Shown: positions 1 through 43,400 of the stretch, piece by piece
How positions within the stretch are numbered: the stretch's first letter is position 1
Layout: each line of letters opens with the position of its first letter
Notes under the pieces: model-generated
Database searches by the model: none
Told to the model about the DNA's origin: nothing
Seen by the model: only the letters and a program-made list of their open reading frames with translations
Origin: a virus
DNA: 64,000 nucleotides
Strand: one strand, 5' to 3'
IMG/VR virus record: IMGVR_UViG_3300017917_000894
Span: 1 to 64,000 of that record
Position numbers and translations under genes: made by a program

Positions 1-279
1 GATCCTAAAGATAATCCTTGCTGGAAGGGGTATCATCCTGTTGGCACAAAGAAAAAGGGCGGGCGTACAGTTCCCAACTGTGTACCCAATGCCAATGAAG
101 ATGCCTATATGGAAAGCCTGTGGAAGCAAATATATGAGAAAGCACCTCCAGGAGATAAGTACGAACGCATGGTCAAGCATATTAAAAAAGGATATGCTAA
201 AGATGGTAAAGTAACAGACAAGGAAAAGTCTATTGCTTATGCCACTGCATGGAAGGCTAAAAACAAAGCAAAAAAGTAA
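1..279 (+). CDS. 3' end of a probable virion/internal head protein (5'-truncated by the window)
   Basis: Frame 1 is open from base 1 to TAA 277-279. It contains CWKGYHPVGTKKKGGRTVPNCVP and IAYATAWK, short modules typical of T4-like large-phage virion proteins. Confidence 0.7.
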   Translation, partial: DPKDNPCWKGYHPVGTKKKGGRTVPNCVPNANEDAYMESLWKQIYEKAPPGDKYERMVKHIKKGYAKDGKVTDKEKSIAYATAWKAKNKAKK

Positions 280-319
280 GTGAGCAGGAACCACAAACTC
301 CAACAACGGAGCCTGCTCA
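251..319 (+). other. -1 programmed ribosomal frameshift signal
   Basis: SD-like GGAAGG 251-256; heptamer A AAA AAG 270-276; stem TGAGCAGG 281-288 / CCTGCTCA 312-319 with an inner CTCC/GGAG hairpin. Confidence 0.75.
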
Positions 320-506
320 AATTAAACCAGTTGGGCCGCAACCTAAACTTAAATCTGATATGCCGTTAGACTATTGGAAACAAAGATTTCAAACTGCCGA
401 TCCGAACCGTTATCACCAGTTTAAAAATAAAACACCTGAGAAAAAAGATCAAATGGCAGTAGCGGCCTACTATGATGCACATAAACCCAAGGCTTCTAAG
501 CAATGA
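270..506 (+). CDS. -1 frameshift extension of the upstream ORF (KKVSEQEPQ...QMAVAAYYDAHKPKASKQ)
   Basis: The -1 frame is open 261-506 with no start codon before ATG360, which lacks an SD. A_AAA_AAG lies at 270-276, and the TGA overlaps ATG503 of the next gene (ATGA). Confidence 0.75.
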   Translation, partial: KKVSEQEPQTPTTEPAQIKPVGPQPKLKSDMPLDYWKQRFQTADPNRYHQFKNKTPEKKDQMAVAAYYDAHKPKASKQ

Positions 507-1858: not shown

Positions 1859-1962
1859 TGTTTACCTGGATAACCAATCTTTTTAAAAGATGGAAACAAA
1901 ACAAAGAACGCAAACAGAGGCTAGAAGAATTGCGTAAACGAGATCCGTTTATCTATAAATGA
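1858..1962 (+). CDS. 34-aa small protein (MFTWITNLFKRW...LEELRKRDPFIYK)
   Basis: Fills the gap exactly, with TAATG and ATGA overlaps at the two ends; below the ORF-track cutoff. Confidence 0.7.
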   Translation: MFTWITNLFKRWKQNKERKQRLEELRKRDPFIYK

Positions 1963-3431
1963 TTATATGGGGAATCAGTGCCAACAGTCACGATGCTGCG
2001 TTAAGTGTATGGCACGATAAAGAAATTAAATTTGCCGCGCACAGCGAAAGATACAGCAAAATTAAAAATGATCCCCATCTTCATTCGGACTTAATTAAAG
2101 AAGCCGAATATTATGGTAAGCCTGATCTAGTCGTATGGTACGAAGATCCGAGATTAAAAACTCTTAGACAATTAAGAGCAGGACAAGGCTGGCAGTGGCA
2201 GGAAAATAACATCCGCGCCTATCTGCAAAAATATAATATCAATGCAAGAGTAAAATACTCAGGTCATCACCATAGTCATGCCGCTGCCGGGTATTATACT
2301 AGCCAATGTCAGGATGCCAGCGTTATCTGTTTAGATAGCATCGGTGAGTTTGAAACATTGACTATCTGGAAAGGCGTTGGTAACAATCTACATAAGTGGT
2401 ATAGCCAAGGCTACCCGCATAGTGTAGGTCTGTGGTTTAGTGCTATGACACAACGTTGCGGTCTTAAACCCAACGAAGAAGAATACATTCTCATGGGTAT
2501 GGCAGCATACGGCGACCCAACAAGATTACACAACACAATATTAGAAGACTTTTTTAAGTCAATAGCTGCTCCAGAAATTAAGTTCAAACAAAATTTGCAC
2601 AGAGGTTGCCGAGATTGGAGACCGGATCTTAATTCAGAACAAGATATTTTTGATATTGCCGCAGCTACTCAATCTGTTTACACAGAAATACTAAAAAATC
2701 TAGTTACATGGACTCGAGAAAATCTATATAGTAAAAATCTTATTTTAATGGGCGGATGTGCTTTAAATTGTCTAGCTAATAGTTCTGTTACCGAAGGGTG
2801 GGACTCTGTATGGATTATGCCTAACCCAGGTGATGCAGGCAGTGCCATCGGCGGTGTGGCGGCCTATCTCGGAGAGCATGTTCAGTGGACTGGTCCATAT
2901 TTGGGCACTAACCTCGGAAATGAATATCCTGTTGATCAATTAGTCAATTGTTTACAGCATAGTAAAATTGCCGGCGTTGCATCTGGTCCTGCCGAATTCG
3001 GTCCGAGAGCATTAGGTCATCGTAGTCTACTAGCAGATCCCCGAGGTGGAGATATAAAAGACCGTGTCAATGATATTAAACGACGACAAAAATTTAGACC
3101 GTTTGCTCCAGCAATATTAGAGGAACACCTTCATGAATATTTTGAAATGCCTGTAGGAATTGACAAAAGTCCTTACATGCAGTTTGTGGCAAAGTGTAGA
3201 CATCCTGACCTCTTTCCTGCTATAATTCATGCTGACGGTACTAGTCGTGTTCAATCTGTCGGTAAAGAAGACAGTCCGGGATTTAGAAAATTATTAGAAA
3301 CATGGTATGTCGAAACGGGATGTCCTATGTTATTGAATACAAGTCTAAATATCAAAGGACAACCAATGGTTAACGATCTAGTTGACGTTCAAGAATTTGA
3401 AAGAAAATACAATGTTAGAGTTTTTTCGTAA
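1959..3431 (+). CDS. carbamoyltransferase, NodU/CmcH family
   Basis: HDAA at the N-terminus, HHxSHAA, GGCALNC, GDAGSAIG, EFGPRALGHRS, RPFAP, LLNTSLN. Confidence 0.92.
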   Translation: MIIWGISANSHDAALSVWHDKEIKFAAHSERYSKIKNDPHLHSDLIKEAEYYGKPDLVVWYEDPRLKTLRQLRAGQGWQWQENNIRAYLQKYNINARVKYSGHHHSHAAAGYYTSQCQDASVICLDSIGEFETLTIWKGVGNNLHKWYSQGYPHSVGLWFSAMTQRCGLKPNEEEYILMGMAAYGDPTRLHNTILEDFFKSIAAPEIKFKQNLHRGCRDWRPDLNSEQDIFDIAAATQSVYTEILKNLVTWTRENLYSKNLILMGGCALNCLANSSVTEGWDSVWIMPNPGDAGSAIGGVAAYLGEHVQWTGPYLGTNLGNEYPVDQLVNCLQHSKIAGVASGPAEFGPRALGHRSLLADPRGGDIKDRVNDIKRRQKFRPFAPAILEEHLHEYFEMPVGIDKSPYMQFVAKCRHPDLFPAIIHADGTSRVQSVGKEDSPGFRKLLETWYVETGCPMLLNTSLNIKGQPMVNDLVDVQEFERKYNVRVFS

Positions 3432-13195: not shown

Positions 13196-13571
13196 TACAA
13201 TTTTTAATCATCTCCCTAACGATAAAGATGACAGTAATGCTCCATGGAATAATATTGTAAAAGAAGATTTTCATGTTGCAGTTTATCTCGATAAGTATCC
13301 CGTAAATCCAGGTCATCTTTTATTTGTCCCGAAGTATAACACCATCGGAGTTCTTCGTGAAGCATTTGAAGATGCCGTGCGTCACGGAAAAAACAAAGTC
13401 GACGACGGTGAATGGGACGGATTTAATATTGGCCTTAATTACGGTAGAGCAGCAGGACAAACGGTTGATTGGCCGCATATCCATCTAATTCCGCGATTTA
13501 AAGGAGATATGGAAGACCCCACTGGGGGCGTTCGCCATGTTATTCCGGAAAAGGGAAACTATAAAAAATGA
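13188..13571 (+). CDS. HIT family nucleotide hydrolase
   Basis: [25 protein letters not shown]. Confidence 0.92.
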
Positions 13572-14671
13572 GAATCGAAGACGAAGTCAAACTCGATTTT
13601 AAAGACGTGCTTATCCGCCCTAAGCGTAGCACACTATCAAGTCGTAAAGAAGTTGAACTAAAACGTACATATAAATTTAAACACAGTGGCTGGGAGTGGA
13701 CCGGTGTTCCTGTCATGGCTGCTAATATGGACGGAGTCGGCACATTTGACATGGCCGCAGAATTGTACGAACACAGGATGTTTACATGTCTTGTTAAAAG
13801 TTATTCTTTAGAAGACTTTGTCAATAAACAAGAAATTACATTCGGCAATTACTGTGCTGTAAGTACAGGCACTAGTGATCGCGACTGGACTAAGCTTCAA
13901 CAGATATTAAATACTTTTCCAGAATTACATTTTGTCTGTATTGATGTGGCTAACGGTTACAGTGAGCACTTCGGCGACTTTGTTGCTAAAGTTCGAGAAA
14001 GATACCCAACACATACAATTATCGCAGGAAATGTAGTTACTGCTGATATGACACAGGAGTTAATTCTACGTGGAGCCGATATTGTTAAAGTGGGCATTGG
14101 CCCTGGTAGCGTTTGTACTACTCGTATTCAAACTGGCGTTGGCTATCCTCAGCTTTCTGCAATCATCGAATGTGCGGACGCTGCTCATGGTCTTGGTGGA
14201 CACATTATTGCTGATGGCGGTTGTGCTTGTCCTGGGGATGTCGCTAAAGCCTTCGGAGCTGGCGCAGATTTTGTAATGCTAGGTGGCATGTTAGCCGGTC
14301 ATGATGAAGGCGGTGGCAATGTGATCACTAAGTATATCAAAACTAATGAACTAGATCCGATTCCGAGAATGAGCGGTATCGATTACAACTACGAATTTCC
14401 TAAAATTGAAGAAAAGAAATTTATACAATTTTACGGAATGAGCTCAGACACTGCAATGAATAAGCACAGCGGTGGAGTAGCTGAATACCGGAGTAGTGAA
14501 GGAAGGACTGTATCTATCCCTTATAAGGGTGCTGTAAAAAACACTGTGTTAGATCTTCTTGGAGGATTGCGTAGCACCTGCACTTATGTAGGAGCACCTA
14601 GCCTAAAACAGTTGAGTAAATGCACTACATTTATTAGAGTCAATAGACAAATTAACGATGTTTTTCTATAA
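13568..14671 (+). CDS. guaC: GMP reductase
   Basis: [49 protein letters not shown]. Confidence 0.95.
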
Positions 14672-15591: not shown

Positions 15592-16446
15592 ATGGCTAAA
15601 ATTAAAATAAGCGAACTATTTTATAGTATCCAAGGCGAAGGACGGTACATGGGTGTACCTAGTGTCTTTTTAAGAACATTCGGATGTAATTTTACATGCG
15701 ACGGATTCGGTATGCCGAGAGGCGAGAAAACTAACGAACGACATGCTATTGCAGAGCGTGTCTTAGAATTTAAACAATATCGAGACCTGCCTCTTGTAAG
15801 CACCGGGTGCGATTCTTATGCCAGTTGGGATCCTAGATTCAAAGACCTTTCTCCATTGCTCACAACAGACAGTATTGCAGAAAGTATCTGCGAAATATTG
15901 CCACACAAGGAATGGCGAGATGAACATTTAGTTATTACCGGCGGCGAACCTTTGCTTGGCTGGCAGAAACAATATCCTGCATTGTTAGATCACCCTAAGA
16001 TGCAGAATCTTAAAGAGATTACGTTTGAGACTAATGGCACAATGAGGCTAACTAGTGCATTTAAAGAATACCTAGTTAAATGGCTAATGCCTCGTCCAGA
16101 ATTTGAAAGAGAAATTACCTTTAGTGTCAGTGCTAAACTGCCAGTTAGTGGAGAACCGTGGGACGATGCTATCAAACCCGAAGTAGTCTGTGATTATGAA
16201 AATTACGGAACGGTATATCTAAAATTTGTTATTGCTACAGAACAAGACTTTGCTGATGCAGAGTGTGCAATTGCCGCATATCGCAGTGCAGGATTTACTG
16301 GACATGTTTATCTAATGCCAGTTGGCGGAGTGGAAAGCGTATACAGTCTTAATAATCGTCGTGTAGCGGAATTAGCAATGAAACACGGATTGAGATATTC
16401 AGACCGATTACAGGTTCCGTTGTTTAAAAATGAGTGGGGTACCTAA
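15592..16446 (+). CDS. queE: 7-carboxy-7-deazaguanine synthase
   Basis: ELFYSIQGEG, FLRTFGCNFTC...GCDS, ITGGEP, ETNG, RLQ. Confidence 0.85.
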   Translation: MAKIKISELFYSIQGEGRYMGVPSVFLRTFGCNFTCDGFGMPRGEKTNERHAIAERVLEFKQYRDLPLVSTGCDSYASWDPRFKDLSPLLTTDSIAESICEILPHKEWRDEHLVITGGEPLLGWQKQYPALLDHPKMQNLKEITFETNGTMRLTSAFKEYLVKWLMPRPEFEREITFSVSAKLPVSGEPWDDAIKPEVVCDYENYGTVYLKFVIATEQDFADAECAIAAYRSAGFTGHVYLMPVGGVESVYSLNNRRVAELAMKHGLRYSDRLQVPLFKNEWGT

Positions 16447-22986: not shown

Positions 22987-23468
22987 TGATCAATTGTATA
23001 GTAGCAGTTGAACGTAACCAGGGCATAGGATTTAATGGTTCTATGCCCTGGCCTCGCCTTTCGGGTGATATGAAATGGTTTCGAGAACAGACAACAGATC
23101 AAATCGTAATCATGGGTCGTAAGACTTGGGATAGTATAGGATCTAAATCTTTGCCAAATAGAATTAATCTTGTTTTAAGCAGATCAAAAATCGAAGGAGC
23201 AGATTGTTGTTCACCAGACACTGACTGGCTATTAGATTACTGCAAAACTTTTTATCCTTATAAAGAAATTTATATTATCGGCGGAAGTGCCGTTTATCAG
23301 CATTATCTAGACATTGTAGATCGATTTTATATTACAGAAATTGATGCTGATTATAAATGCGACACCTTCTTTGACTTAAATTATGTTCAAGAGAACTTTA
23401 CAAAAGTTACAGAACATGCTACATTTACTGATCCAATAAAATATACAATTAAAGAATATAACCTATGA
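22986..23468 (+). CDS. frd: dihydrofolate reductase
   Basis: GIGFNGSMPW, DMKWF, IMGRKTWDSI, LPNRINLVLS, IIGG. Confidence 0.95.
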   Translation: MINCIVAVERNQGIGFNGSMPWPRLSGDMKWFREQTTDQIVIMGRKTWDSIGSKSLPNRINLVLSRSKIEGADCCSPDTDWLLDYCKTFYPYKEIYIIGGSAVYQHYLDIVDRFYITEIDADYKCDTFFDLNYVQENFTKVTEHATFTDPIKYTIKEYNL

Positions 23469-24349
23469 CACATCCAGAATTTGAATACCTAAATCTTCTT
23501 CAATCAATATTAGATACCGGTGAACATAGACCGGACAGAACAGGCGTAGGTACTATCAGCAAGTTCGGAGTTCAAATGAGGTTTGATCTTTCAAAAGGAT
23601 TCCCTGCTATTACAACAAAAAAATTAGCATGGAGAGCTGTAGTAAGCGAGCTACTGTGGTTCATTGAAGGAAGCGGAGACGAGTTTAGATTAAGAGAAAT
23701 ACTACACGGTAGCCGAAATAGCGATAAAAAAACTATATGGACTGACAATGCTACTGCTGACTATTGGGTTAAACGTCGGCTGCAAAGACACGCCGGTGAC
23801 CTCGGGCGTGTTTACGGTGTTCAGTGGCGTAAATGGCGTCAACCTTTAATTCGAATTAATAAAGTTATCTTACAAAATTTAGATCAACTTCAAAACTTAA
23901 TTGAGGGAATTAAAGCAGATCCATATGGACGCAGACATATTATTACGGCATGGAATCCCGGAGAATTAGAATTAATGGCATTGCCTCCTTGCCATTTAAT
24001 GTCTCAGTTTTACGTGAGTAATGGCAAATTAAGTTGCCAAATGTATCAAAGATCTGCTGATATGTTTTTAGGAGTTCCTTTTAACATTGCGTCGTATGCT
24101 TTATTCACACATATGATTGCACAGGTCTGCAATTTAAAAGTCGGCGAGCTTATTATCACATTAGGCGATGCTCATATCTACGAAAATCATATTGATCAGG
24201 TAAAAGAACAACTAGCAAGAGAACCGCTAAACTTACCGTTTCTGCAATTAAATCCAGAAGTTCAAGATATTACAAAGTTTACAATGGATGACGTTCACTT
24301 AATTGGATATGAAAGTCATAGCTCAATTAAAGCACCCATGGCTGTTTAA
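23465..24349 (+). CDS. thyA: thymidylate synthase
   Basis: DRTGVGT, ELLWF, LPPCH, YQRSADMFLGVPFN, DAHIYENH. Confidence 0.97.
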   Translation: MTHPEFEYLNLLQSILDTGEHRPDRTGVGTISKFGVQMRFDLSKGFPAITTKKLAWRAVVSELLWFIEGSGDEFRLREILHGSRNSDKKTIWTDNATADYWVKRRLQRHAGDLGRVYGVQWRKWRQPLIRINKVILQNLDQLQNLIEGIKADPYGRRHIITAWNPGELELMALPPCHLMSQFYVSNGKLSCQMYQRSADMFLGVPFNIASYALFTHMIAQVCNLKVGELIITLGDAHIYENHIDQVKEQLAREPLNLPFLQLNPEVQDITKFTMDDVHLIGYESHSSIKAPMAV

Positions 24350-31476: not shown

Positions 31477-34400
31477 TTAATATCCTTCTAATGGGTTGTC
31501 ATCATCATCAGTTAATTCAAAATTTGCATTATCTGTTAGAGCAGGAGTTCCACCATAATAATACTCGTCTGGTAATTCTGCTGTTTTGAATCTTATAAAT
31601 TCGGCTTGTATGCTATCAGCAACAAGCAAACTAGTCATTGTTCCTTGCCATACTGTTCCTGTAGTGTGGCCAATATCAACTCTAACTCCTGGTACAAAAT
31701 CAGCAATATTTAACTTGAGTTCATAGTTTCCAGTTGTAGAATTGTATTCAACTTCAAATTCTGGAGGTAAAGTAACAAGACTTGTAACAGTTGTATAATA
31801 AGAAACTGTCCTATCGTGTACCTCAATACTGTTCTTACGTAAGGGTCTTCCTCCATAGCGAACTGTGATCTGATCTTTATAGGCTGCGGAATTTTTAAGT
31901 TGTACTCCGTCACCCCAAGATGCATATATAGATCCTGTATTAAATTCAAAACTTGATGTACTAATTACAAAGGTGTAAGTATTGTAGGTATTTGTAACCG
32001 TAGTTAATACGTAGGTACCAGTAGTTGAACTAGTAACATGATATTGCTTAAACATTTTGTCAGCATAAGGAATCTGCTGCTGTAAACTTTGATCAACAAC
32101 CTTAGTGCCAATTTCTGAGAAAGTTGCAGGACCTGTACCGTACATACTTCTTCTTAGATTAGAAAGTTTATTATCTCTCTTTTCAAAGAATTCAACACGC
32201 TCGCTATCAATGTAAATCACTCCGGGCACATTTTGAGCAGGGTTAGGAGGTATTAATCGAGAAGAATCTTCAACTTCAATCTCAATATCGTCGACATTAA
32301 GTTCTTTTGTTAGTCTTGTTGAGTAGAATTCTGAAATTCTAGTGTAGTTATTTCTGTCAAATATATCTTTGAACATTCTATAACCTAAAACAATATTAGT
32401 GTTCTTAGGAGAATTAATAACAGTGATTAAAATTTCATCGCCCGGATCAGCCACTATTAGTTCACTCAATTGAACAGTCTTAAGATCTGGCAACAATTCA
32501 TATTGTGACCCAGCTGTAATCTGAGATCCATTAATATAAACCCATATGTAACTGGCGCTCAATGCAGGCAAACTTAAAACATACCTGCCACTAGCATTGC
32601 CATTAAATCGTTCCGATCTTAGCATTATACCAGAGTTATCTTTAAAGGTTGTTAGTTTAACAGACCCAGATGCTAGTTGACTAGGATTTGAGAATATTAC
32701 CTGATTACCCATTACAACATAATCGTAATCCAATAAACTTTCAATAGCAATAGTGTCGCCGTTAGCTAATAAACCGTATGCTAATACAATCTGACCGTTA
32801 TTACCGTCTACTGTATAATCAAAGCCAGATCGTAATTGCACGCCATTAGCGTAAACTTTAACATTATTAATATCATAAGTACCGGGAGGTTGCATCTCAG
32901 GACCGATATCATATGTTAATTGATTTCCGCCAATTTGATAATATGTTACATCAGGTGGATACAGTCGATACCTACCTTGTCCAAATGATGGTTCGTGTTC
33001 GACCAATATCTGAGAACTTATTGGTTCTAGAGTCGACACCATATTTGTAATTGTTAATAATGATGTTGCAGTGTCGATGGCAAATATCTCAGTCCACATT
33101 CCATTAAATTCAGGATAGTTAATACCAAAGAACCAAGCCTGAGCATTTACGCTACCTGTAGACATGTTATAAATCTTTACACTGGCTCTATTGTTATTAT
33201 CGCCATATGGTTCAAGCATATAACCGTAATCTGTTGTAGTGTTAATCGAATCGATCTGAACACCATTAACAGTTACGTATGCACTCTTAACATCTTCAAT
33301 ACTAGACAAACTAGGAATTGCAACACTAGACTCACCAACAACAGAAGCAATATTACTATCTAGATAGTAAGAACCTCCCATCGTAATCATTGTATATCCA
33401 GCTCTTCCGTCCGATAACTGAGGTGCTATATACAATTTGTCTTCATATACAAAGAATTGATTAGTTGCTGTAAAGTTAAATGGATCTTTGTTAGGATCAA
33501 ATCTTCCTTGACCGGCATATCTCCAATCTCCGCCGTCTGACGTACTATAAAATACATGACTGGTATTATTCTGAATAGAAGTCCACGAAACTTCAACATT
33601 TTCTGCACCGTTCGGAGAAGCAATGCCTGTAATAAATCCTGGCTCATTAGTTAGTGTAGCAACTTCTCTCCATGTATTTTCAAAAATCATTTCAACATAC
33701 TGGTTAGTACCATCAGAGTATAAACCAACTTCATATTGATATGTTGGCAACTCGGGACTATTATTTCTGTATTGATAATGACTACCTTGGAATCTTAATC
33801 TCCAATAATTAAAATTACCAACTGTACCAGAATCAAACCATAACCCAGGGGCCTGACCATTCTCAAGGGGTTGATCAAAAATTCCGATAGCCTGCCATAA
33901 ATCGCAATACATAACCATGATTGACGGATTTTCAAGGGCATTTATGTTTAAAGGAGTATACTCATTATCTCCGCCGCCGAATGTTAGATAGCCGTTTGTA
34001 CCAACATAAACCTCATTATAGACAGTACCAAACATATTCCAACCAAATCCTAACGAATAAGGTCCAGTAAACGTATCATCACCGGCCGCGGATGCAATAG
34101 GAGAACCTGTTACTCCAATAGGTACCGCAGCTTCGGGACTATAATAAGGGCCAACAGTTTCGGGGTCGGGTGTTTCAGTTAATCGATCAAATATTGCACC
34201 TTTGTATTCCACAGTTATACCGACTGCTTCATTGATCTTTTGAGATAATTTAGATACCGATGTAACACCTTGATATACCGGAACAGTTCCAGAAACGACT
34301 AACGGAGAGCTAAAGTTATCTTGTGTGTAAACACTTATGCCTACAGAATCTAATACATTACCTTTTACATGTTCTTCAGGAGCATGTCCGTGTTCAACAC

Positions 34401-37400
34401 TTATAAATCCTGCACCGTCCCTAACAAGATCAACTGGACTTACTCCAAGTGCTCCGACAAAATTACCGGCACTATCCCATGAACCGGCCGACAATTCAGT
34501 ATCAACTCCGTTTACATTAAAATTGTCTTTCCAGAATTCAATCTTAGGATATCCGTGAACTACAACATCAAGAATATTAGTAGTTCCTTGAAGGAAAATA
34601 GTAACTCCTAAGTTTCCAGTTGCAGTGGCGCTTGTTAGATAGTATTCTGCTAATACTGGATAATTCGGTAAAGAATTTGTGTCGCCGTTTAAATAGACCG
34701 AAGCAGTAGAAGCCGCATTATATGGAATTCCGGTGTCGTAAAATACCGTAGAAGTATTAGATACTGTATCTATGTTTCTATAAATTTCATAGACTGTCCA
34801 GGTGTTAATTTCTTGTAAGACACTTGGAATATAAACAGAAGCAGTTGTAGATAATGTACGAGCCGATGTAGTAGACAGCACAGAAGTAGCGTGTGACCCT
34901 GTTCCTACAGCGGTGAATCTATCATTACCGACTCCTGTGACAACATATCTGCCGTTAAATCCAGTTAATGTTGCATTATTAACTCCGCTAATATCAGCAA
35001 TGTCACCAACTTTAATATCTCCACCAAAGTATTCTGTTGTATAGAAAACAACAGTTCCTGTGGTAGTTAATGTATCCGCCCAGATACGTTTAATTCTAAA
35101 ACGATAATCTGTTAAATTGATAGATTTAGTTGCTGTGTTAACACTTGCAACACTCATATTTTTCTTAATATAATTTGTTGCTGTATTTGTAAGTGTAATT
35201 TTTTGTCCAACAGAAATTCCAGTTAAGGTACTTAAGAACAATGTCGATGTACCATATGGAGCAGTCTTAATAAGATAAGAACTGGCATAATAATCTGTTA
35301 AATCAGACCACGCTGAGTTAACATCATATATTCCTTGTCCCCACGGAGGACTATAATCAAAGGTCAATCCTTGAATTACAGAACTACTATACTCTGCACC
35401 CGACATTAACAATGGCAATTCTTTGCCAGGCATTTCTTCTGTTGGATTATAAAAGTTGTCAATTCTATCTACAGCATTATATAACTCAATATTTTTCTTG
35501 TATGTTACTTGTAGTGTTTGACCAAGTCCGGGAAGATAATTTAAAAACTTAAATCTACAGTATTTTTTAGTAGAACCATTATCTCTTACACGATAATATT
35601 CTATTGTGTAGTCGGCTCCTAACACCAGTTTTTTGTCAAGCAAAGGAACAATAGTTGATTTGTCCGGATCGGCTAACCATTTAAGTTCAAAAGATGATAC
35701 TTCACCAGGACAGGTAAATGTCTCGGTAATTACAGATTCACCAATTTCGTTGTTTAATCCTATTCTATCAAATTTTAATTTAATATTATTTTTTCTTACA
35801 GGATTATTACCTATTACGACTGACATGGTTGCTGATACAACATTTGAGCCGCCGTTAATCAAAGAAATAATCGGAGGAGTAACATATCCAGACCCCGGAT
35901 TAGTAACTACTATATTATAAATTTCTCCATTTCGTAGATATGCTTCGGCAGCAGCGCCGGAACCTGTATCACCAGTTGCAGTTGTAAAGACTACTATCGG
36001 TCTTTGAGTATACCCCGAACCGCCGTTGGCAATTAATACATCAGTAACTTCATACTTGTAATTGTCGTACCAATCTTTTCTAGGATATTCGTTTAGTAAA
36101 GAATTGCCTAAAGAAACTGTTTCAAAATTACCAGTTAAAGGATTGTAGTAGGAAGGAAGATCAAAGTCGGTTGTATGTATACCGGTATTTTCTAAATAGG
36201 TATATTCAGAAACATAATTTCTAACCTTTGTTCTATAAGGCTTTACTTCGTTAATATATTCTTCGAAATATTTTTCGTTGTCCAGCTTATAAACTGATCT
36301 CTGGTCCAATTCTCCAATAGTATTGGTTACAGAAATAAAAGAAGTTTTAAATGCCCAATCTAATAACTTCTGTTCAGTTAACGCATATTTTAATGCCTTG
36401 AAGAAGAATAGATTCCAATATACCTTTAGATTTTTTATAAAGATATCATCTTTAAGTGCGGTTAAAATAAAATTAAGTTCTAGATCAGGTAGCTGATCAT
36501 ACAATGTTTCTTCTAGGGTACCGACATCATAAGAATAATCACTCTGGGTATAATCCCATATTGTATCTAAAATTTGAATTGTTCCGCGTTCACTATAGAT
36601 TATGTCATACGAGGTAGAATAATCTCCAACTTGGTCATCGGCAACTCTTTCTAAAATTATATATCGGCCGTCGCCATAATTTTTGATCTTTACATAATCG
36701 CCGGGATCAATTTCTGTTATTCTGCTAAGTTCGTAGGTGTTATCTACTACATACCTATAGTCTTTATAACCATCATAGGTATCTTTAATCCAATCTACAT
36801 ATTTCCAGAATAACGGTGTGTTGTAAGACTGGGTGCGTGTTCTGATCCAATATCTATTTCTATATTCAAAATCGTGTTTAGTCCAGCGCCCGCCGTAATT
36901 CGAATCAGCACTTACAACGACACTATGAGATCTTACTTCTAAAGTAATGTCTACATAATTTTGACCGTTATCTTCAATTGTTGCACCTACTACTCTGCCG
37001 ACAGCATCTATCTCAGTCTTGATAACTGCCCCGTTCCCGGTATTTGATGCAATTTTTACAGTAGGAGCAACAGAATACCCGAAACCAGGATTTGTAATTT
37101 CAACTGAAACTATTTTTCCGTTATACAAATCACAGACTAATTGGGCTCTTTCAAATTTAGTTGTGTCTATTAATTCTAATTCAGAAATATCGTCAATTAA
37201 TAAATCGTACTCTTGATCAGTAATATCCGGAATTTGTTCAAAAGATAATAAATTCTCAAAGCTAAAATTACCGGTAATTTTTTCATCGATTAACACAGAA
37301 TTTGTGTAATCAATAAGATTGCGAAGAGCCTGCAATCTATCTTTAAACAAAGTCTGTTGAGGACGAATACCAATTCCGTATTTGCTTCTAAACGACAAAT

Positions 37401-40400
37401 CGGGGTCAGGAACTAACTTTCCTTGTTCGTCGTGACCTAATAAACTGTCGAACAATTTTTTGTTCAATAGAGGCGTAGGAATACTATTCGGATCGCCTTC
37501 TCGAATTAAAATCCACTCTGTATGTCTCGGAACTGAATTGTTGGTACTGTCTACAGCAATGTTTGCATGTATATAAGAACCTACTAGGCTAGTATTAATA
37601 TTAGCAAATGCTACACTGTCTTTAGCCAAGACCATAACATGCTTGATGCCGTTGGCAACAGGATCAGCAATTAAACTTGCAACTTGATAAGAACTTATTC
37701 TTCTATTTTTTACATCAGGAACAGTAACTTTATTCTTTACCCAGAAATAATAAACATTGTTAAAAGAATTTGTAAGAGAATTCCAAACTTGTTTAACTGA
37801 CAGAATAGAATTATCAGGGTATTTAGGTTGTCCAGAGATTCCCCTTACAAGGCCTTCGTTTGTGTCTGCCTGAGCAGCCCATTCGCTAGGTAATAGATCT
37901 GACTTTACCCATTCATATACATCAATCGATGCACCAGGGAATAATCGTCCCCAATTGTTCTTTTTATAAATTTCAGAACCTTGTTCATACCACATGTATT
38001 TTGCGGTACTTACATCCCACCACAGTTCGCCTACATGTTCGTCGATCCAATTAGTTTGATCATCGTTTACTGTACCTACTGTACCAATTGTATAAACTGC
38101 AGGATCGGCCGCAGTTTTATATTTTATTTCTTGCTCTGCAATACCTGCAACTTTTCCTTTTATAGGATCAATTGCATCTAAATACTCAATAATTGTTTCA
38201 TTCTTAGAATCAATTAAAGCCACACGATTTATAGTATTAACATCAACAAGATCTTCTTGATAAGCTAATAAATTCCAACTGGTCTTATTCTGATCAATCT
38301 TAGTATATTGGAAGAAAGTTGACTTATCTTCTCCGGTGCCTTCTGCATACCAAGGAGCCCCAACAAAAATACTTCTATTAGTTGTAGCTAAAGAATACCC
38401 ATATCTGCTACCGTCGACTATATTATTATTCTTAAGCTCGTCGGCTATGACAAAATAATCGCCAAAGTTATTGTAAAGGTAAACAGACCCTGCATCTGAA
38501 ATAGGACTAAAGAATCGTGTAGTGTCGCTGTCAAATGTTGTTTCACCATCTCTGGTATTAATATCGAATTGACTTTGCTTAGATCTATTAACACCAATGG
38601 AAGAAACAACCAACGATAGTTCATCTTTACTAATAGAGATAGATTGACCAAATTTTAAATCGTTGGTAGTTTCTGGATTTTCAATAATCTGCCTTAATAC
38701 ATAGGTACCAGTGCTGGTAAGATTTGTTGCTGTATAAATTGCAATCTTACCATATACCTGTCCTGCTTCTCTAGTTTCTTTAGAGGAAATTATTAAGAAT
38801 TTCCCAGAAGGACTAACTTCAATATCATGTCCGAACACATCAGTAGTGCCGAACGGAGAATATAATGTCTGCTTCCAAGAAAGGTTTGCATTATAAATTT
38901 GAACAACACCAGTTGCAGTTGTTCCTTCTACATGGCCCGGCGCAGAAACAGCGATAAAATTACCATTAGTACTTCCCGAAATCTTTTCACCGAACTGAGA
39001 TTTTGAATCTAATATAACATTAGAATTTAAAACAATCCCCTGAGAATGTTGTGTAACTAAAACACTGCCGGTAGTGGTTGTATTAATGTAATAGCAGAAT
39101 ACATGACCAGTAGATGTATTAACAACACCGTCACCGGGCGCTCCAACTAAGAAAGTTGTACTATTCTGTGCAGAAACTTGATTAGTATACAACGAGTGGC
39201 CGTATCTTAAATTAGCCGCTTTTTCAGTTGTGTCAGAATATGTTCCAGGCGCAAGTAAAACTAATTTTGTTTCTTCGAAATCAATTAATTGTTTTCTAGA
39301 ACTAATTTTTATAAGACCTTGATTATCAAATGACTTGAATGTGCCTGTTCCTGTACTAACAACAATTGTCGCTGTAGTAGAGGTAGAAGAACGAACCTTA
39401 CTAGCTGCCGGTGCTCCTGCTAAAAATAATTCTTTATTAATATCGTAGCCCAACGAATAACCAAAGTCTGTAGCGGTATTATTTTCACAATAAATTTTAC
39501 CGTCAGAATTTAAAATGTATTCAAACTGTTTACTAACCTCATCTTCAAATCTTTCAAATACAGCAATTCGACCTTCACTATCATAGATAGGCAAACTCCA
39601 AGATGGGGATGAAATTAAAACAATTGGACTGTCTTCATTAGCGTAGATTGTATGCCCCAATTGTTGAGCTGAAGGTATAGCCGGAGAATTTACTGTCAAT
39701 GCTACTTTATAATTGTCTACCTTTTCGTATACAGCCCATTTTTCCGGAGCTTGGTCGATCCAGATTTTATCTCCTTGCCCCAACCTAAATAGATTTTTTA
39801 CGTTCGAAATTTGTTCAAAGTCACTAAATCTAGCTGTTTCGAATTTAAAGAGAGCACCAAATGCCAACAGTTCTTCGTTTACAATAGTCGATAATTCAGA
39901 TGCAACAGTAAACTGATTGAGCTCAGGTACCCCGGTAACTCGATATACTCCATTAACTTGATTGTTGAAGGCTACAACAGAAACAATATCTCCAACTAAT
40001 AATCCATGGTGGAAGTCGGTAACAAAAGTAATTTCTTCAGCAGGGGCACTAACAAACACTCCCGAAATTTTAGCCTTTTGTCTTGTATATCTGTAGACAT
40101 CCCAATCACCGTTTTCTAAGAAACCTAACCAAATAGTGTCTCTATCTTTTACAGCAGAGTTATTAGCAATGTCTAATAGACTATCTTTATTATATGCCGT
40201 AGCAACAACATGATCAGGATTTACATAACCGGCGGAAAGTAATTTTATATTGTTATCAATAAATGTCGAATCTGAATAGACTGAGAAAATCTGAGATGCA
40301 TCAAAATCGTTAGGTTTAATTAACAATCCTGTAGAAGATGTGTAATTAATTAACGGATTTTTATCAGTTGGGTCAGTATTAACAAACTTAACAATATAAG

Positions 40401-43400
40401 GATTTTCTCTCTCGGTACTTTCTTCTAAAGCAAATTCATATTCTTTATAAGTTTCAAAACCGCCAAAATTACCTGCACGTATTGCCCATTCTTCTTTGTA
40501 GTCAATGATGCCTTGTCTTGTAAATGTTCCTGCCTTACTAATTTTATCTATTGCATTACGTGTTCCTTTTTCTCTAATAAACCCTTGATAAAATTTATAT
40601 TGAGTGATAGGATTTGTAAAGATATTAGATAGATAAGGACGTTGAGTATATCCCACTAGGCGTTGACTCAACTGTTGTTGTACGCTGTCAAAATTATCGA
40701 TATCTAAACTATAAAAATCTTCAAACTGATTAATCTTATAATCAAAGTTAGGTAACAGATCGGGAACGGGTTTTTCGTATAGTTTTGCCCATTTATTAAA
40801 ATCAAACGATTCGACTGGATCAACATTAATTACGGCCTCATAATATGATCCATTATATCTAACTACAGAGCCAACTTGATAATATGTGTATTCCTGCCAT
40901 TCGGCAATTTGAACATTATCGAAAATAAAACCAGGACTTGAATAATCTCCGTTCCAGTTAGCAGTCTTAAATCCAGAAAGTTTTACCCGACGCTGACGAT
41001 ATCCTGATTCAATATCGTATATTGTATCATTAAAAATAGTAGTATTATTGAACACCATCCCGTGTTCTTTTTGTACTAAGTGTAATACTGCAAAGAAAAT
41101 TCCATCCTGTGTATCAACTGTTGAAATTGTACAAACACCATCTTCTCTGCTTAATGTAAATTTTTCTCTCGGAAATGCTCTACCATCAGCACCTAGTAGA
41201 CTGTATTCATAATTTTTTCCCGTGATGTTATCTACAACAGAATTTGAAAACTTAAACTGTAGGCTATTAGCAAAAGGACTAAGAGTAATTAAATTACCTT
41301 CGGACCAGTTTTGTGTAGTCCAATATAAAAATTCTTTTCCTGTGTACGTCCAGTCTAATACTTCTAAAAGATCAGTGTTGTATTCTTCAAATATAAATCC
41401 GTCTTGTTCTAAGAAACGACCGTACCCTAGTACAAAATCAAATACAGCCTGATGGTTATCAAACTCTGTTCCATAAGGAATAATTGTGATTTTATTTTCG
41501 TAGCCTGTTGGCAGTTCTGCCGAGACTCCACCAACGATAGGAAGACCGCTAAGACGCTGGAATAGGTTAGGGTCAAAGTCAGCACTAGCTGTATGACCAG
41601 TTTTTACTCTGTAAAATTGATCGTTGTATCTTACAATCTGTCCCTGTTTATAATACTTGGTAGTATTTGTTTGAGCGCTGGTTAGATCGGCTGCGGTCAA
41701 ACCGTTATTGCCGTAGGGAACAACTTCGATGTAATCGACAAATGGTGCCGAAACTCCACCAACGGTAATCGATTGGCTATTATTAGTTTTAATTGGTTTA
41801 TAAATTTGAAAATAAGGATTTGTTTTATCATATCCTCGTACAACAAATTTTCCGTTAACCAGTTGAACAATTATTCCAGATATGCGAGCAGCCTTAATAG
41901 GATTGCTGACATTTAGGATTAGAGAATAATCTTCTGGAGGTAACAATGCCCCTTTGCCAGTTGATACAGGATCAATACTATCAATAATTACCTGAAGTTT
42001 TTCTTTACTAGAGAATCCCCCTAGCTTATAGAAAAGATTGAAGTCGCAATAAGTTAAATCTCGAGTCAATATTTGAATATAATTCAAATCGACTTGATTT
42101 CCCTTTTCAATAATTAAATTTCCAAATCCTGCTGCTTGATTGTTATCATTATCTAAAATTAATTTACTCGGAGCAATGTATAATTCGTTACTATACAACA
42201 ATTGATCAGAATTGTTAAATGATAGTCTACTTACGTCAAACATTACCGATGTATAAGTAGAAGGATTAAAAAGTGCAGCAAGGATGCTGAGAGCAAAAGG
42301 ATAACTGCTACTTCTTCTCCATGCAAATTCTGCCGGACCGTAGTCGCCGAACTTCCAAGGACCTTTCTTAGATTGATAAGAAGAATCAGAAACTAGGAAA
42401 GTATCTGGTGATTTTAAATTACCTGCAGAATCAACAGGAATAATTGATATTAATCCAGAACGTTTAAAATCATTTCTATATTCACCCGTTCCTCGAACAA
42501 ATCCGTTTTCTAAATCGTTCCACAACACTGTATTATTAGAAGTGTAGGGAGCAGAACCGTAAGTTGATTGCCACCATGACGGTTCGCTTGTAAAACCTAA
42601 CATCTCCCACGGATGTGTATTAGGTCTAACAGTGTCGTAGAAATATTCAAAAATTCCTTTCCAATTTCCAGGAATACTTTCACCAAAGATAGTGTCTAGT
42701 GCCTGATTATAATTGTATGTTAGCGGACTACCATCAATAAATGTTGAATTAGTTTCAAAGTCAACATTATAACTTCCTGCCCAGCGGATAAAATCTTTTG
42801 TAAGGATATCAATAGCATCTTGCCTGCTGAACTTATCATTTCTAAAAGCGCCAGGTATTACTGCTAATACATCAAAAATTTTAGAATTGTATTCGACCTT
42901 AATATTATTAAAAATTCTTTTTTCAAATTCAAGTATTAAAACATCTCTATAATCATCAAATGCTTTAATAACGCTGCCGTCATGACACCTAATTAATTTT
43001 ATCGGAGAGTCTTGATACGATTCATCAAAATAAATTTCAGGTTCAAACTTAGGATACAAGCCTAGCTTGCTAGGTGTATAAGGAACGTATGAGCCTTGAG
43101 TATTTGAATAGGTATAAATTTTAACAATGTCAGTAGATGTTAGCGCAGAGCTAATTGTAATTGATTCATCAATCGAATCAATTGTATAATCTCTTCCAAT
43201 TATTAATTGATCGTCGTTAACATAAACTGTAACTGCCTGAAAACTTAATGCAGAAGGATTATATTCTATTCCTAATGAATAAGTTCTGTTAATTAATGGT
43301 CCTACAGTATATTCTTTAACAGTTCTATCAGAACCATAGGGAATCATATCAGACCTAAAATAAGGAGACCTATTATCTTTATTTTTGTTTATTAATTTTA

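Follow-up and report, generated by a model that had tools for sequence, protein, structure and literature searches.

A probable -1 programmed ribosomal frameshift appends a small helical module to modular proteins of uncultured giant freshwater phages related to T4

According to PMC5009743, A_AAA_AAG is the most shift-prone heptamer in Escherichia coli and is the site used in dnaX; a reversed dnaX layout is also predicted in some bacteria, with the 0-frame stop immediately after the site and the longer of the two products made by shifting. The same review describes C-terminal domains of phage structural proteins (Ig-like) that are encoded in frame in some phages and via frameshifting in others, as well as the lambda-like tail chaperone G/GT, in which a -1 shift near the end of the short-form open reading frame (ORF) gives a fixed minor amount of a longer fusion. 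T4-like phages make their tail chaperone forms without frameshifting, according to work cited in the PRFect paper. Here we analyze a 64,000-nucleotide stretch of viral DNA (the window), i.e., the first 64 kb of a 72,293-bp contig with 37.9% G+C content (IMG/VR record IMGVR_UViG_3300017917_000894), whose first ORF, ORF0, ends in a putative frameshift signal followed out of frame by a small module that we call B. Our comparison of sequences supports that this is very probably a real and conserved -1 programmed frameshift of the canonical kind, in a gene family and a phage group that are both new, with some ribosomes very probably slipping back one base at the end of a large modular protein.

The 3' end of ORF0 reads in frame 1 from the first base of the window and comprises 92 codons and a stop (positions 1 to 279, plus strand, as are all features of this locus). 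Its final two sense codons, AAA (271 to 273) and AAG (274 to 276), form with the preceding A the slippery heptamer A_AAA_AAG at 270 to 276, which lies in the X_XXY_YYZ phase of ORF0 that defines a canonical -1 site. The 0-frame stop TAA (277 to 279) abuts the heptamer, terminates the short isoform, whose sequence ends ...AWKAKNKAKK, and may act as a "shifty stop." Downstream, a stem-loop at 281 to 319 consists of an outer stem, 281 to 288 paired with 312 to 319 (UGAGCAGG/CCUGCUCA), and an inner hairpin, 298 to 301 paired with 308 to 311; by RNAfold, the stem has 8 bp and begins 4 nucleotides (nt) past the heptamer, and the minimum free energy (MFE) of the stem-loop is -19.6 kcal/mol (z = -3.0), with 1 of 200 shuffled sequences folding as well. 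A Shine-Dalgarno (SD)-like GGAAGG at 251 to 256, formed by W-K-A codons 13 nt before the heptamer, is a possible 5' stimulator.

In the -1 frame, a TAA at 258 to 260 is followed by no ATG, GTG, or TTG over 261 to 359, and the frame is open from 261 to 503. Read from position 276, the -1 product is VSEQEPQTPTTEPAQIKPVGPQPKLKSDMPLDYWKQRFQTADPNRYHQFKNKTPEKKDQMAVAAYYDAHKPKASKQ, i.e., 76 residues that begin with VSEQEPQTPTTEPAQIK and end with KASKQ. It is made up of a Pro-rich linker, VSEQEPQTPTTEPAQIKPVGPQPKLKSD (276 to 359), which exists only in the -1 frame and has no start codon of its own, and the core of module B, MPLDYWKQRFQTADPNRYHQFKNKTPEKKDQMAVAAYYDAHKPKASKQ, with two predicted helices (360 to 506, including the stop TGA at 504 to 506). 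The ATG at position 360 (ATG360) is a possible start for the final 48 residues. The TGA overlaps the ATG (503 to 505) of the next gene, as ATGA; that gene, at 503 to 922, encodes a Cys-rich protein of 139 aa. All elements listed in the original prediction (the heptamer, the adjacent TAA, the SD-like GGAAGG, the stem, the -1 ORF, and the ATGA overlap) are present where it placed them, and its statement that the -1 frame, stopped at 258 to 260, lacks a usable start of its own was likewise confirmed, ATG360 being the first candidate. The 72,293-bp contig contains 57 A_AAA_AAR heptamers when any phase and both strands are counted. Only 4 of them lie in the right phase of an ORF that is open for 80 or more codons before the heptamer, and the window site is the only one of the 4 with a stop next to it and a -1 frame that runs on for long (78 codons, versus 8 to 11 in the other three); it exceeds chance.

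We then searched for the 19-nt core of the signal, AAAAAAGTAAGTGAGCAGG, in viral, cellular genome, and metagenome contigs. The core was found in 33 viral contigs, and the layout was the same in all 33: the 0-frame ORF is open to the start of the locus and ends with KK*, and the -1 frame, closed 0 to 16 codons upstream, is open for 75 to 239 codons that encode a VSEQ[ED]P linker and B. As a control, the cellular genome contigs gave 15 matches of the 19-mer, none with B and all with 0-frame ORFs of at most 52 codons; considered as a clue to the host, these were rejected as chance matches lacking B. Among the metagenome contigs, B accompanied 23 of the 42 matches, with one more cut by a contig end, and the remainder resembled chance matches. 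A protein-based scan that left the nucleotides unconstrained returned 80 contigs, 53 of the frameshift type, with a short B frame behind a 0-frame ORF, and 27 with the B frame open to the locus start; the latter are in-frame fusions with a linker of the form ..[DE]xY[MF]ESL..AEKLxPxAPxDVW... In total, 117 locus records were obtained, some being the same contig fetched twice. Ninety of these are of the frameshift type, and in every one the stop lies 0 to 2 codons past an A_AAA_AAR heptamer, with 0 of 90 lacking it. Across the 38 distinct junction sequences, the heptamer is A_AAA_AAG or A_AAA_AAA only, both slippery, and the changes seen in the codon after the stop (AGT or AGC, Ser; ATT, Ile; AAA, Lys) are either synonymous or conservative when read in the -1 frame.

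The linker, counted from the heptamer to the Trp of the module, has 12 lengths spanning 16 to 43 codons, all of which keep B in the -1 phase and none of which contains a stop. In 53 pairs of similar linkers, which are not independent of one another, differences fall at the first, second, and third positions of -1-frame codons 111, 67, and 330 times, respectively (330 of 508, 65%, at the third), an excess of the kind expected of translated sequence. When the frameshift or in-frame label was placed on a maximum-likelihood tree of 55 distinct B rows, built on 50 columns and with many unresolved forks, 2 changes were required (2 to 3 in the bootstrap), compared to a mean of 17.4 for shuffled labels, with 0 of 500 shuffles as low as observed. 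Because so few changes are needed, the out-of-frame state has been inherited through substantial divergence rather than scattered as errors. Among the 80 best of 294 relatives of the downstream 139-aa gene, only 3 (L057, L054, and L005) carry a homolog of the -1 product, the junctions of which all read A_AAA_AAG-TAA-GTGAG; two of the 3 have another module at the end of the upstream ORF.

To what extent the candidate stimulators are shared differs from one to another. All 34 long-linker junctions, 28 of which came from the protein-based scan, have an MFE fold with a helix that contains GAGCAGG/CCUGCUC and starts 4 to 7 nt after the heptamer; for the 73 nt downstream, MFE values in this set lie between -14.8 and -28.8. 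In a 15-sequence alignment of one loop-length class (14 distinct rows), the 7 core stem pairs are invariant, and an 11-pair version of the stem has 85.7% of cells paired, compared to 25 to 42% with slid partners; a MAFFT alignment pooling all loop-length classes misaligns the 3' arms and was excluded from the pair counts. Both arms are also coding, with E-Q-E in the 5' arm and P-A-Q or A-P-A in the 3' arm. The synonymous sites of the 5' arm are frozen, with GAG in 34 of 34 and CAG in 34 of 34 cases versus 33 of 86 and 32 of 104, respectively, in the remaining linker, while the same codon count for the 3' arm is circular, since that arm was defined by its sequence. An SD-like motif accompanies two kinds of upstream module, as TGG-AAG-GC in the AWKAKNK type and as GAGGA in the VEELAKK type. 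By analogy with the work on "shifty" A_AAG described in PMC5009743, the conserved adjacent stop may promote slippage of the P-site tRNA. A short-linker class is made up of 4 distinct junctions (KKKVSERQLEP.MDLD; L153, L154, L162/L164, and L182), which have 8 to 9 A and no GAGCAGG stem; in this class, the length of the run itself, tandem slippery sites, or transcriptional slippage may stand in for the hairpin. The in-frame sisters of this class read ..MVERQLEPTMDLD...

The presence of ATG360 permits another account, namely that B is a separate small gene encoding a 48-aa protein and that the heptamer, the stop, and the hairpin are incidental, reflecting a Lys-rich C terminus and a conserved intergenic hairpin. 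An ATG does stand at the same place, 5 codons before the Trp of the module, in 30 of the 38 junctions, window included, and databases contain the 48-aa form and similar forms starting with M (P0011, P0041, and P0063); however, ATG is missing ahead of B in 8 of the 38 junctions, and 5 junctions lack GTG and TTG as well, so that B in those 5 would be reachable only by shifting. The same position is Met in in-frame fusions (..LEPTMDLD..) and is therefore not a needed start there. Furthermore, what would be an untranslated spacer under this account bears the -1-frame coding signature and is free of stops across its 12 lengths, and the frame of B relative to ORF0 is always -1. That no SD precedes ATG360 is uninformative, because an SD precedes only 22 of the 60 ORFs of the contig. 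We consider it improbable that B is simply a separate gene; frameshifting and initiation at ATG360 may coexist in this phage.

It is also quite improbable that the fusion arises by transcriptional slippage, in which RNA polymerase adds one A on the A-run and ordinary translation does the rest. PMC5009743 places bacterial transcriptional slippage on runs of 9 A or T, and the short-linker relatives (L153, L154, L162, and L182), with their 8 to 9 A and missing stem, would suit it, but the run in the window has 6 A, below that criterion of about 9, and the window and 34 of the 38 junctions have only 6 to 7 A together with a stem-loop at the distance of a ribosomal stimulator; in addition, the phase of the heptamer is kept, which slippage by the polymerase would not require. 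Homopolymer runs are error prone, in-frame B fusions exist, and the A-run of the window was judged from contigs, which do not reveal minor variants, all of which could point to an assembly or sequencing indel or to a decaying (pseudogenized) in-frame fusion. Against this stand the same out-of-frame layout in 33 viral contigs from many samples, the 38 distinct junctions, the coding constraint that remains on the linker and B, and the fact that no contig has the Pro-rich VSEQEP-type linker in frame; the one contig of full identity, that of the probable source run, which is not independent of the window, matches positions 1 to 1127 with no indel at a depth of about 41. An error or a pseudogene is accordingly hard to credit at all.

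Several observations weigh against a programmed frameshift at this locus. The case is built from assembled contigs and sequence comparison, and locus counts do not represent independent events, because many loci are close relatives or duplicate fetches of the same contig. ORF0 is incomplete in the window: its frame is open from the first base of the contig, and its 5' part is therefore cut off by the contig end. The spacer between the heptamer and the first stem pair is just 4 nt, and no covariation of the stem was found (score of 0.034 versus 0.018, reached by 64 of 500 shuffles); because the 7 core pairs never vary, the argument for the structure comes from its conservation and the frozen synonymous sites only. 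The SD-like motif is absent from junctions with other upstream modules and hence is not a conserved part of the signal. There are no tRNA genes in the window. Lastly, the ATG common to most junctions, discussed above, counts on the same side.

If the site does direct frameshifting, as we think very likely, most ribosomes would read AAA-AAG-TAA and release the short protein, while a fraction would pause at the stem-loop 4 to 7 nt downstream, to which the slowly decoded adjacent stop may contribute. The Lys-tRNAs would then re-pair one base back on A_AAA_AAG, and translation would proceed in the -1 frame as ...KK-VSEQEP..., giving a long form extended by a Pro-rich linker (about 28 residues, predicted to be disordered) and by the two-helix module B (about 48 residues). 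The sequences establish the signal, its phase, and its conservation, the coding signature of the linker, and the in-frame B fusions in relatives; the shift itself, its efficiency, and the role of B are inferred. The original prediction of a programmed -1 frameshift that yields two isoforms, one short and one long, in a setting other than the tail chaperone gains support from the comparison of relatives, in which the cassette is kept in 38 distinct junctions, whereas the fixed ratio it proposed for the two is conjectural.

To characterize the appended module, the 76-aa product was modeled with AlphaFold2 from a 40-row alignment, with a mean predicted local distance difference test score (pLDDT) of 73. 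The first ~25 residues, corresponding to the linker, are predicted to be disordered (pLDDT of 43 to 50), whereas helices are predicted at residues 31 to 39 and 54 to 69 within a block of pLDDT ~83 to 90 (residues 31 to 70), and no strands. B matched no Pfam or PHROG family, no structure in the PDB by Foldseek at E ≤ 0.001, only unnamed clusters in the ESM Atlas with scores below 0.9, and, by tblastn, none of 50,697 GenBank phage records; the names of its longer homologs are uninformative. A phmmer search of 1.84 billion representatives returned 115 matches at E ≤ 0.001, in proteins of 55 to 997 aa, and B is at the extreme C terminus in most of them. Homologs with the two parts fused in frame, a check named in the original prediction, do occur: B is fused C-terminally in most of these 115 matches and in 27 of the 80 contigs from the protein-based scan, and P0013, P0019, P0024, and P0120 are complete in-frame fusions. 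These share upstream module kinds (CW..C and GWE.TVKAMKKH) with the frameshift carriers; no representative was found in which the window's own last ORF0 module is fused in frame to B. P0005 and P0115 are -1-frame ORF calls across the cassette, and several representatives, as gene-caller output, start at the Met equivalent to ATG360. In some relatives (L086, L091, L115, L089, and L093), the -1 ORF extends past B with additional modules (ENFADGKNPQDKGD.., with a weak match to DUF6886), running to 133 to more than 239 residues, and to 505 aa in P0126; in such extended relatives, the shift would join two multi-module proteins.

The carrier protein is likewise modular. The ORF0 fragment contains a CW..G..VPNC module (residues 7 to 28), an EDAYMESL linker, and a KYERMVKHIKKGY..AYATAWKAKNKAKK module, and the ORF0 homolog in L057, the closest relative keeping the arrangement, has at least 914 aa of such modules. 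Across relatives, the unit made of heptamer, stop, stem, linker, and B is joined to at least 7 unrelated types of upstream module and, for this reason, behaves as a portable unit. A blastn search with ORF0 against GenBank phages gave short matches only, to hypothetical proteins of cyanomyoviruses (9 records). The homolog in Sf-CH11, which carries the annotation DUF6321 (GenBank PV340848.1), stops where ORF0 does, with ...AWKHKNKNK*; those in S-H9-1 and S-WAM2 run on in frame into an unrelated C-terminal part, and in S-CREM1 both ORF0 modules lie inside one 783-aa protein. We did not adopt DUF6321 for the last module of ORF0, as the ORF0 fragment has no match to this Pfam family at E ≤ 0.1, the label coming from the GenBank annotation only; P0013 and P0027 match DUF6321 via a different module, and the term "DUF6321" was not found in the literature searched.

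Many contigs from the same and other freshwater runs match only single ORF0 modules (window positions 1 to 100 and 150 to 260) at 85 to 95% identity and then diverge, and base 1 of the window is likewise where the source-like contig ends. Assemblies are probably interrupted at the start of the window by the shared modules, which would explain why ORF0 is cut. The other end of the contig (G000:C1:72232-72293, beyond the window) opens an ORF, MGRPIKSKYFGTRKGLGVGG..., just past the head gene block. This ORF was considered as the N-terminal part of ORF0 and rejected, as no terminal repeat was found in the contig and no homolog was found in the related loci fetched.

The original prediction had further called ORF0 a probable virion or head-type protein, which is not supported by our searches: no Pfam or PHROG family of known function matches ORF0 or the B-bearing proteins, and the ORF0 fragment itself has no Pfam family and matches only PHROG families without function. 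In cyanomyoviruses, genes with the annotation "structural/head protein" are found 1 to 2 genes away from homologs of the module. The motif G[VMI]AE occurs 4.13 times per 1,000 aa in B-bearing proteins versus 0.065 expected from composition, a 63-fold excess, and is present in 67 of the 90 B-bearing proteins of at least 150 aa. This motif, often as [KR]xQGVAE[GV], is found at module boundaries in P0005-P0132 and L057:27-2768 and is absent from the 92-aa fragment in the window. G[VMI]AE looks like a protease processing site, and we take it to be similar to the hydrophobic-x-Glu sites of the T4 prohead protease. The idea of a virion or head protein, which draws on gene neighborhood and G[VMI]AE enrichment only, is unproven. 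We put forward tentatively, as a possibility we rather doubt, a broader scheme in which a portable cassette recombines at the slippery site among multi-module genes of giant freshwater T4-related phages, the carriers being cargo polyproteins packaged in the head and cut at G[VMI]AE by a T4-type prohead protease; the frameshift would then set the number of cargo copies bearing B and, in some relatives, in a gag-pol-like manner, the number of copies with a further 100 to 450 residues of modules.

With respect to the phage itself, PHROG scans identified a family-B DNA polymerase, SbcCD-like nucleases, a T4 gp55-like late sigma factor, baseplate wedge and hub proteins, a portal protein, a T4-type head maturation protease, and a major head protein. 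The DNA polymerase is nearest to those of jumbo myoviruses (Sinorhizobium phage Phosso, 51.5%; Agrobacterium phage Atu_ph07, 46.1%), related IMG/VR contigs reach 138 to 357 kb, and the runs containing the stretch are pond and freshwater metagenomes. Given this gene content, the kinship of the polymerase, the sizes of the relatives, and the habitat, we consider the contig to be part of the genome of an uncultured giant freshwater phage in the T4 superfamily. The 139-aa gene, which is very widespread and conserved, has no Pfam or PHROG family; its 294 relatives are in viral contigs, with the best 80 at 83 to 89% identity, and what lies upstream of it varies among relatives, mostly a gene ending with ..TWIEQR*. 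Elsewhere in the window, a single ORF of 4,704 codons (31477 to 45591, minus strand) lies in the tail and baseplate block, adjoining a baseplate wedge homolog that is 1,174 aa long. Auxiliary genes recognized by PHROG, all on the plus strand, encode a Nol-like carbamoyltransferase (1959 to 3431), a dehydrogenase (13568 to 14671), a QueE-like radical SAM protein (15592 to 16446), and a thymidylate synthase (23465 to 24349).

While the mechanism proposed here is known, the gene family and the phage group are new to it. The site would place canonical -1 frameshifting in T4-superfamily jumbo phages, a group for which the literature, to the extent covered, reports none, even for the tail chaperone; a description of this site was not found in the literature searched on frameshifting in T4-like phages, cyanophages, or jumbo phages. 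Because gene callers annotate a truncated carrier and a 48-aa orphan, catalogues of phage proteins lack the whole class of long isoforms. In the natural series formed by the relatives, one module is attached to its carriers in frame in some cases and by way of a -1 shift in others, and, since the signal travels with the module, the series offers a useful test case for the origin and recombinational spread of recoding sites. Should the carriers prove to be packaged cargo, the stoichiometry of cargo in the virion would be under the control of the site.

Compared to E. coli dnaX, with its gamma and tau products, the window site shares A_AAA_AAG, a 3' stem-loop a few nt downstream, and an SD-like element upstream. 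The Rfam DnaX model RF00382 aligns over its full length (1 to 65 of 65) to positions 251 to 320, with CAAAAAAG..AGUGA in common and with the SD part of the model on GGAAGG at 251 to 256, but the score of 16.9 bits (E of 0.06 to 0.25) is below the gathering score of 35. Unlike dnaX, the gene in the window has no clamp-loader match, its SD-like part is unconserved, and its stem differs in sequence and is coding (E-Q-E/P-A-Q). Because the RF00382 score falls short of the gathering threshold, we regard the site as one that would work like dnaX but stands outside that family, and the original description of a complete dnaX/IS-style cassette goes too far, given the unconserved SD-like element and this score. 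The reversed dnaX layout, as outlined above, is closer in that the long product would come from the shift and the stop adjoins the site, as in the window. The orfA-orfB arrangement of IS3-family elements, as presented in PMC5009743, similarly joins two frames through an A_AAA_AAG-type heptamer and a downstream structure; the window site differs in having no transposase, a 0-frame stop next to the heptamer, and a modular phage protein as its product.

Among phage systems, the lambda-like tail chaperone G/GT resembles the layout proposed for this locus in having a -1 shift near the end of the short-form ORF that yields a longer fusion. It differs in gene context: no tape measure or tail tube gene neighbors the window site, whose neighbors are the 139-aa gene, the carbamoyltransferase, and the DNA polymerase, with the baseplate genes 45 to 55 kb away, and for this reason we do not consider the site a tail-chaperone shift. 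The other phage comparison is with Ig-like extensions. Fraser et al. in 2006, as cited in PMC5009743, reportedly described frameshifted C-terminal extensions, including T7 10A/10B, T3, and Lactobacillus phage A2, and Ig-like domains. As with Ig-like extensions, the shift proposed here is close to the 3' end of a phage gene, some of the molecules would gain a small domain at the C terminus, and the same domain is found both in frame (27 contigs) and out of frame (53 contigs). In contrast to the Ig-like domains, B is predicted to be a two-helix module of about 48 residues with no strands and belongs to no known family, its carrier is a multi-module protein rather than a known capsid or tail protein, and the signal and the module appear to travel together between carriers.

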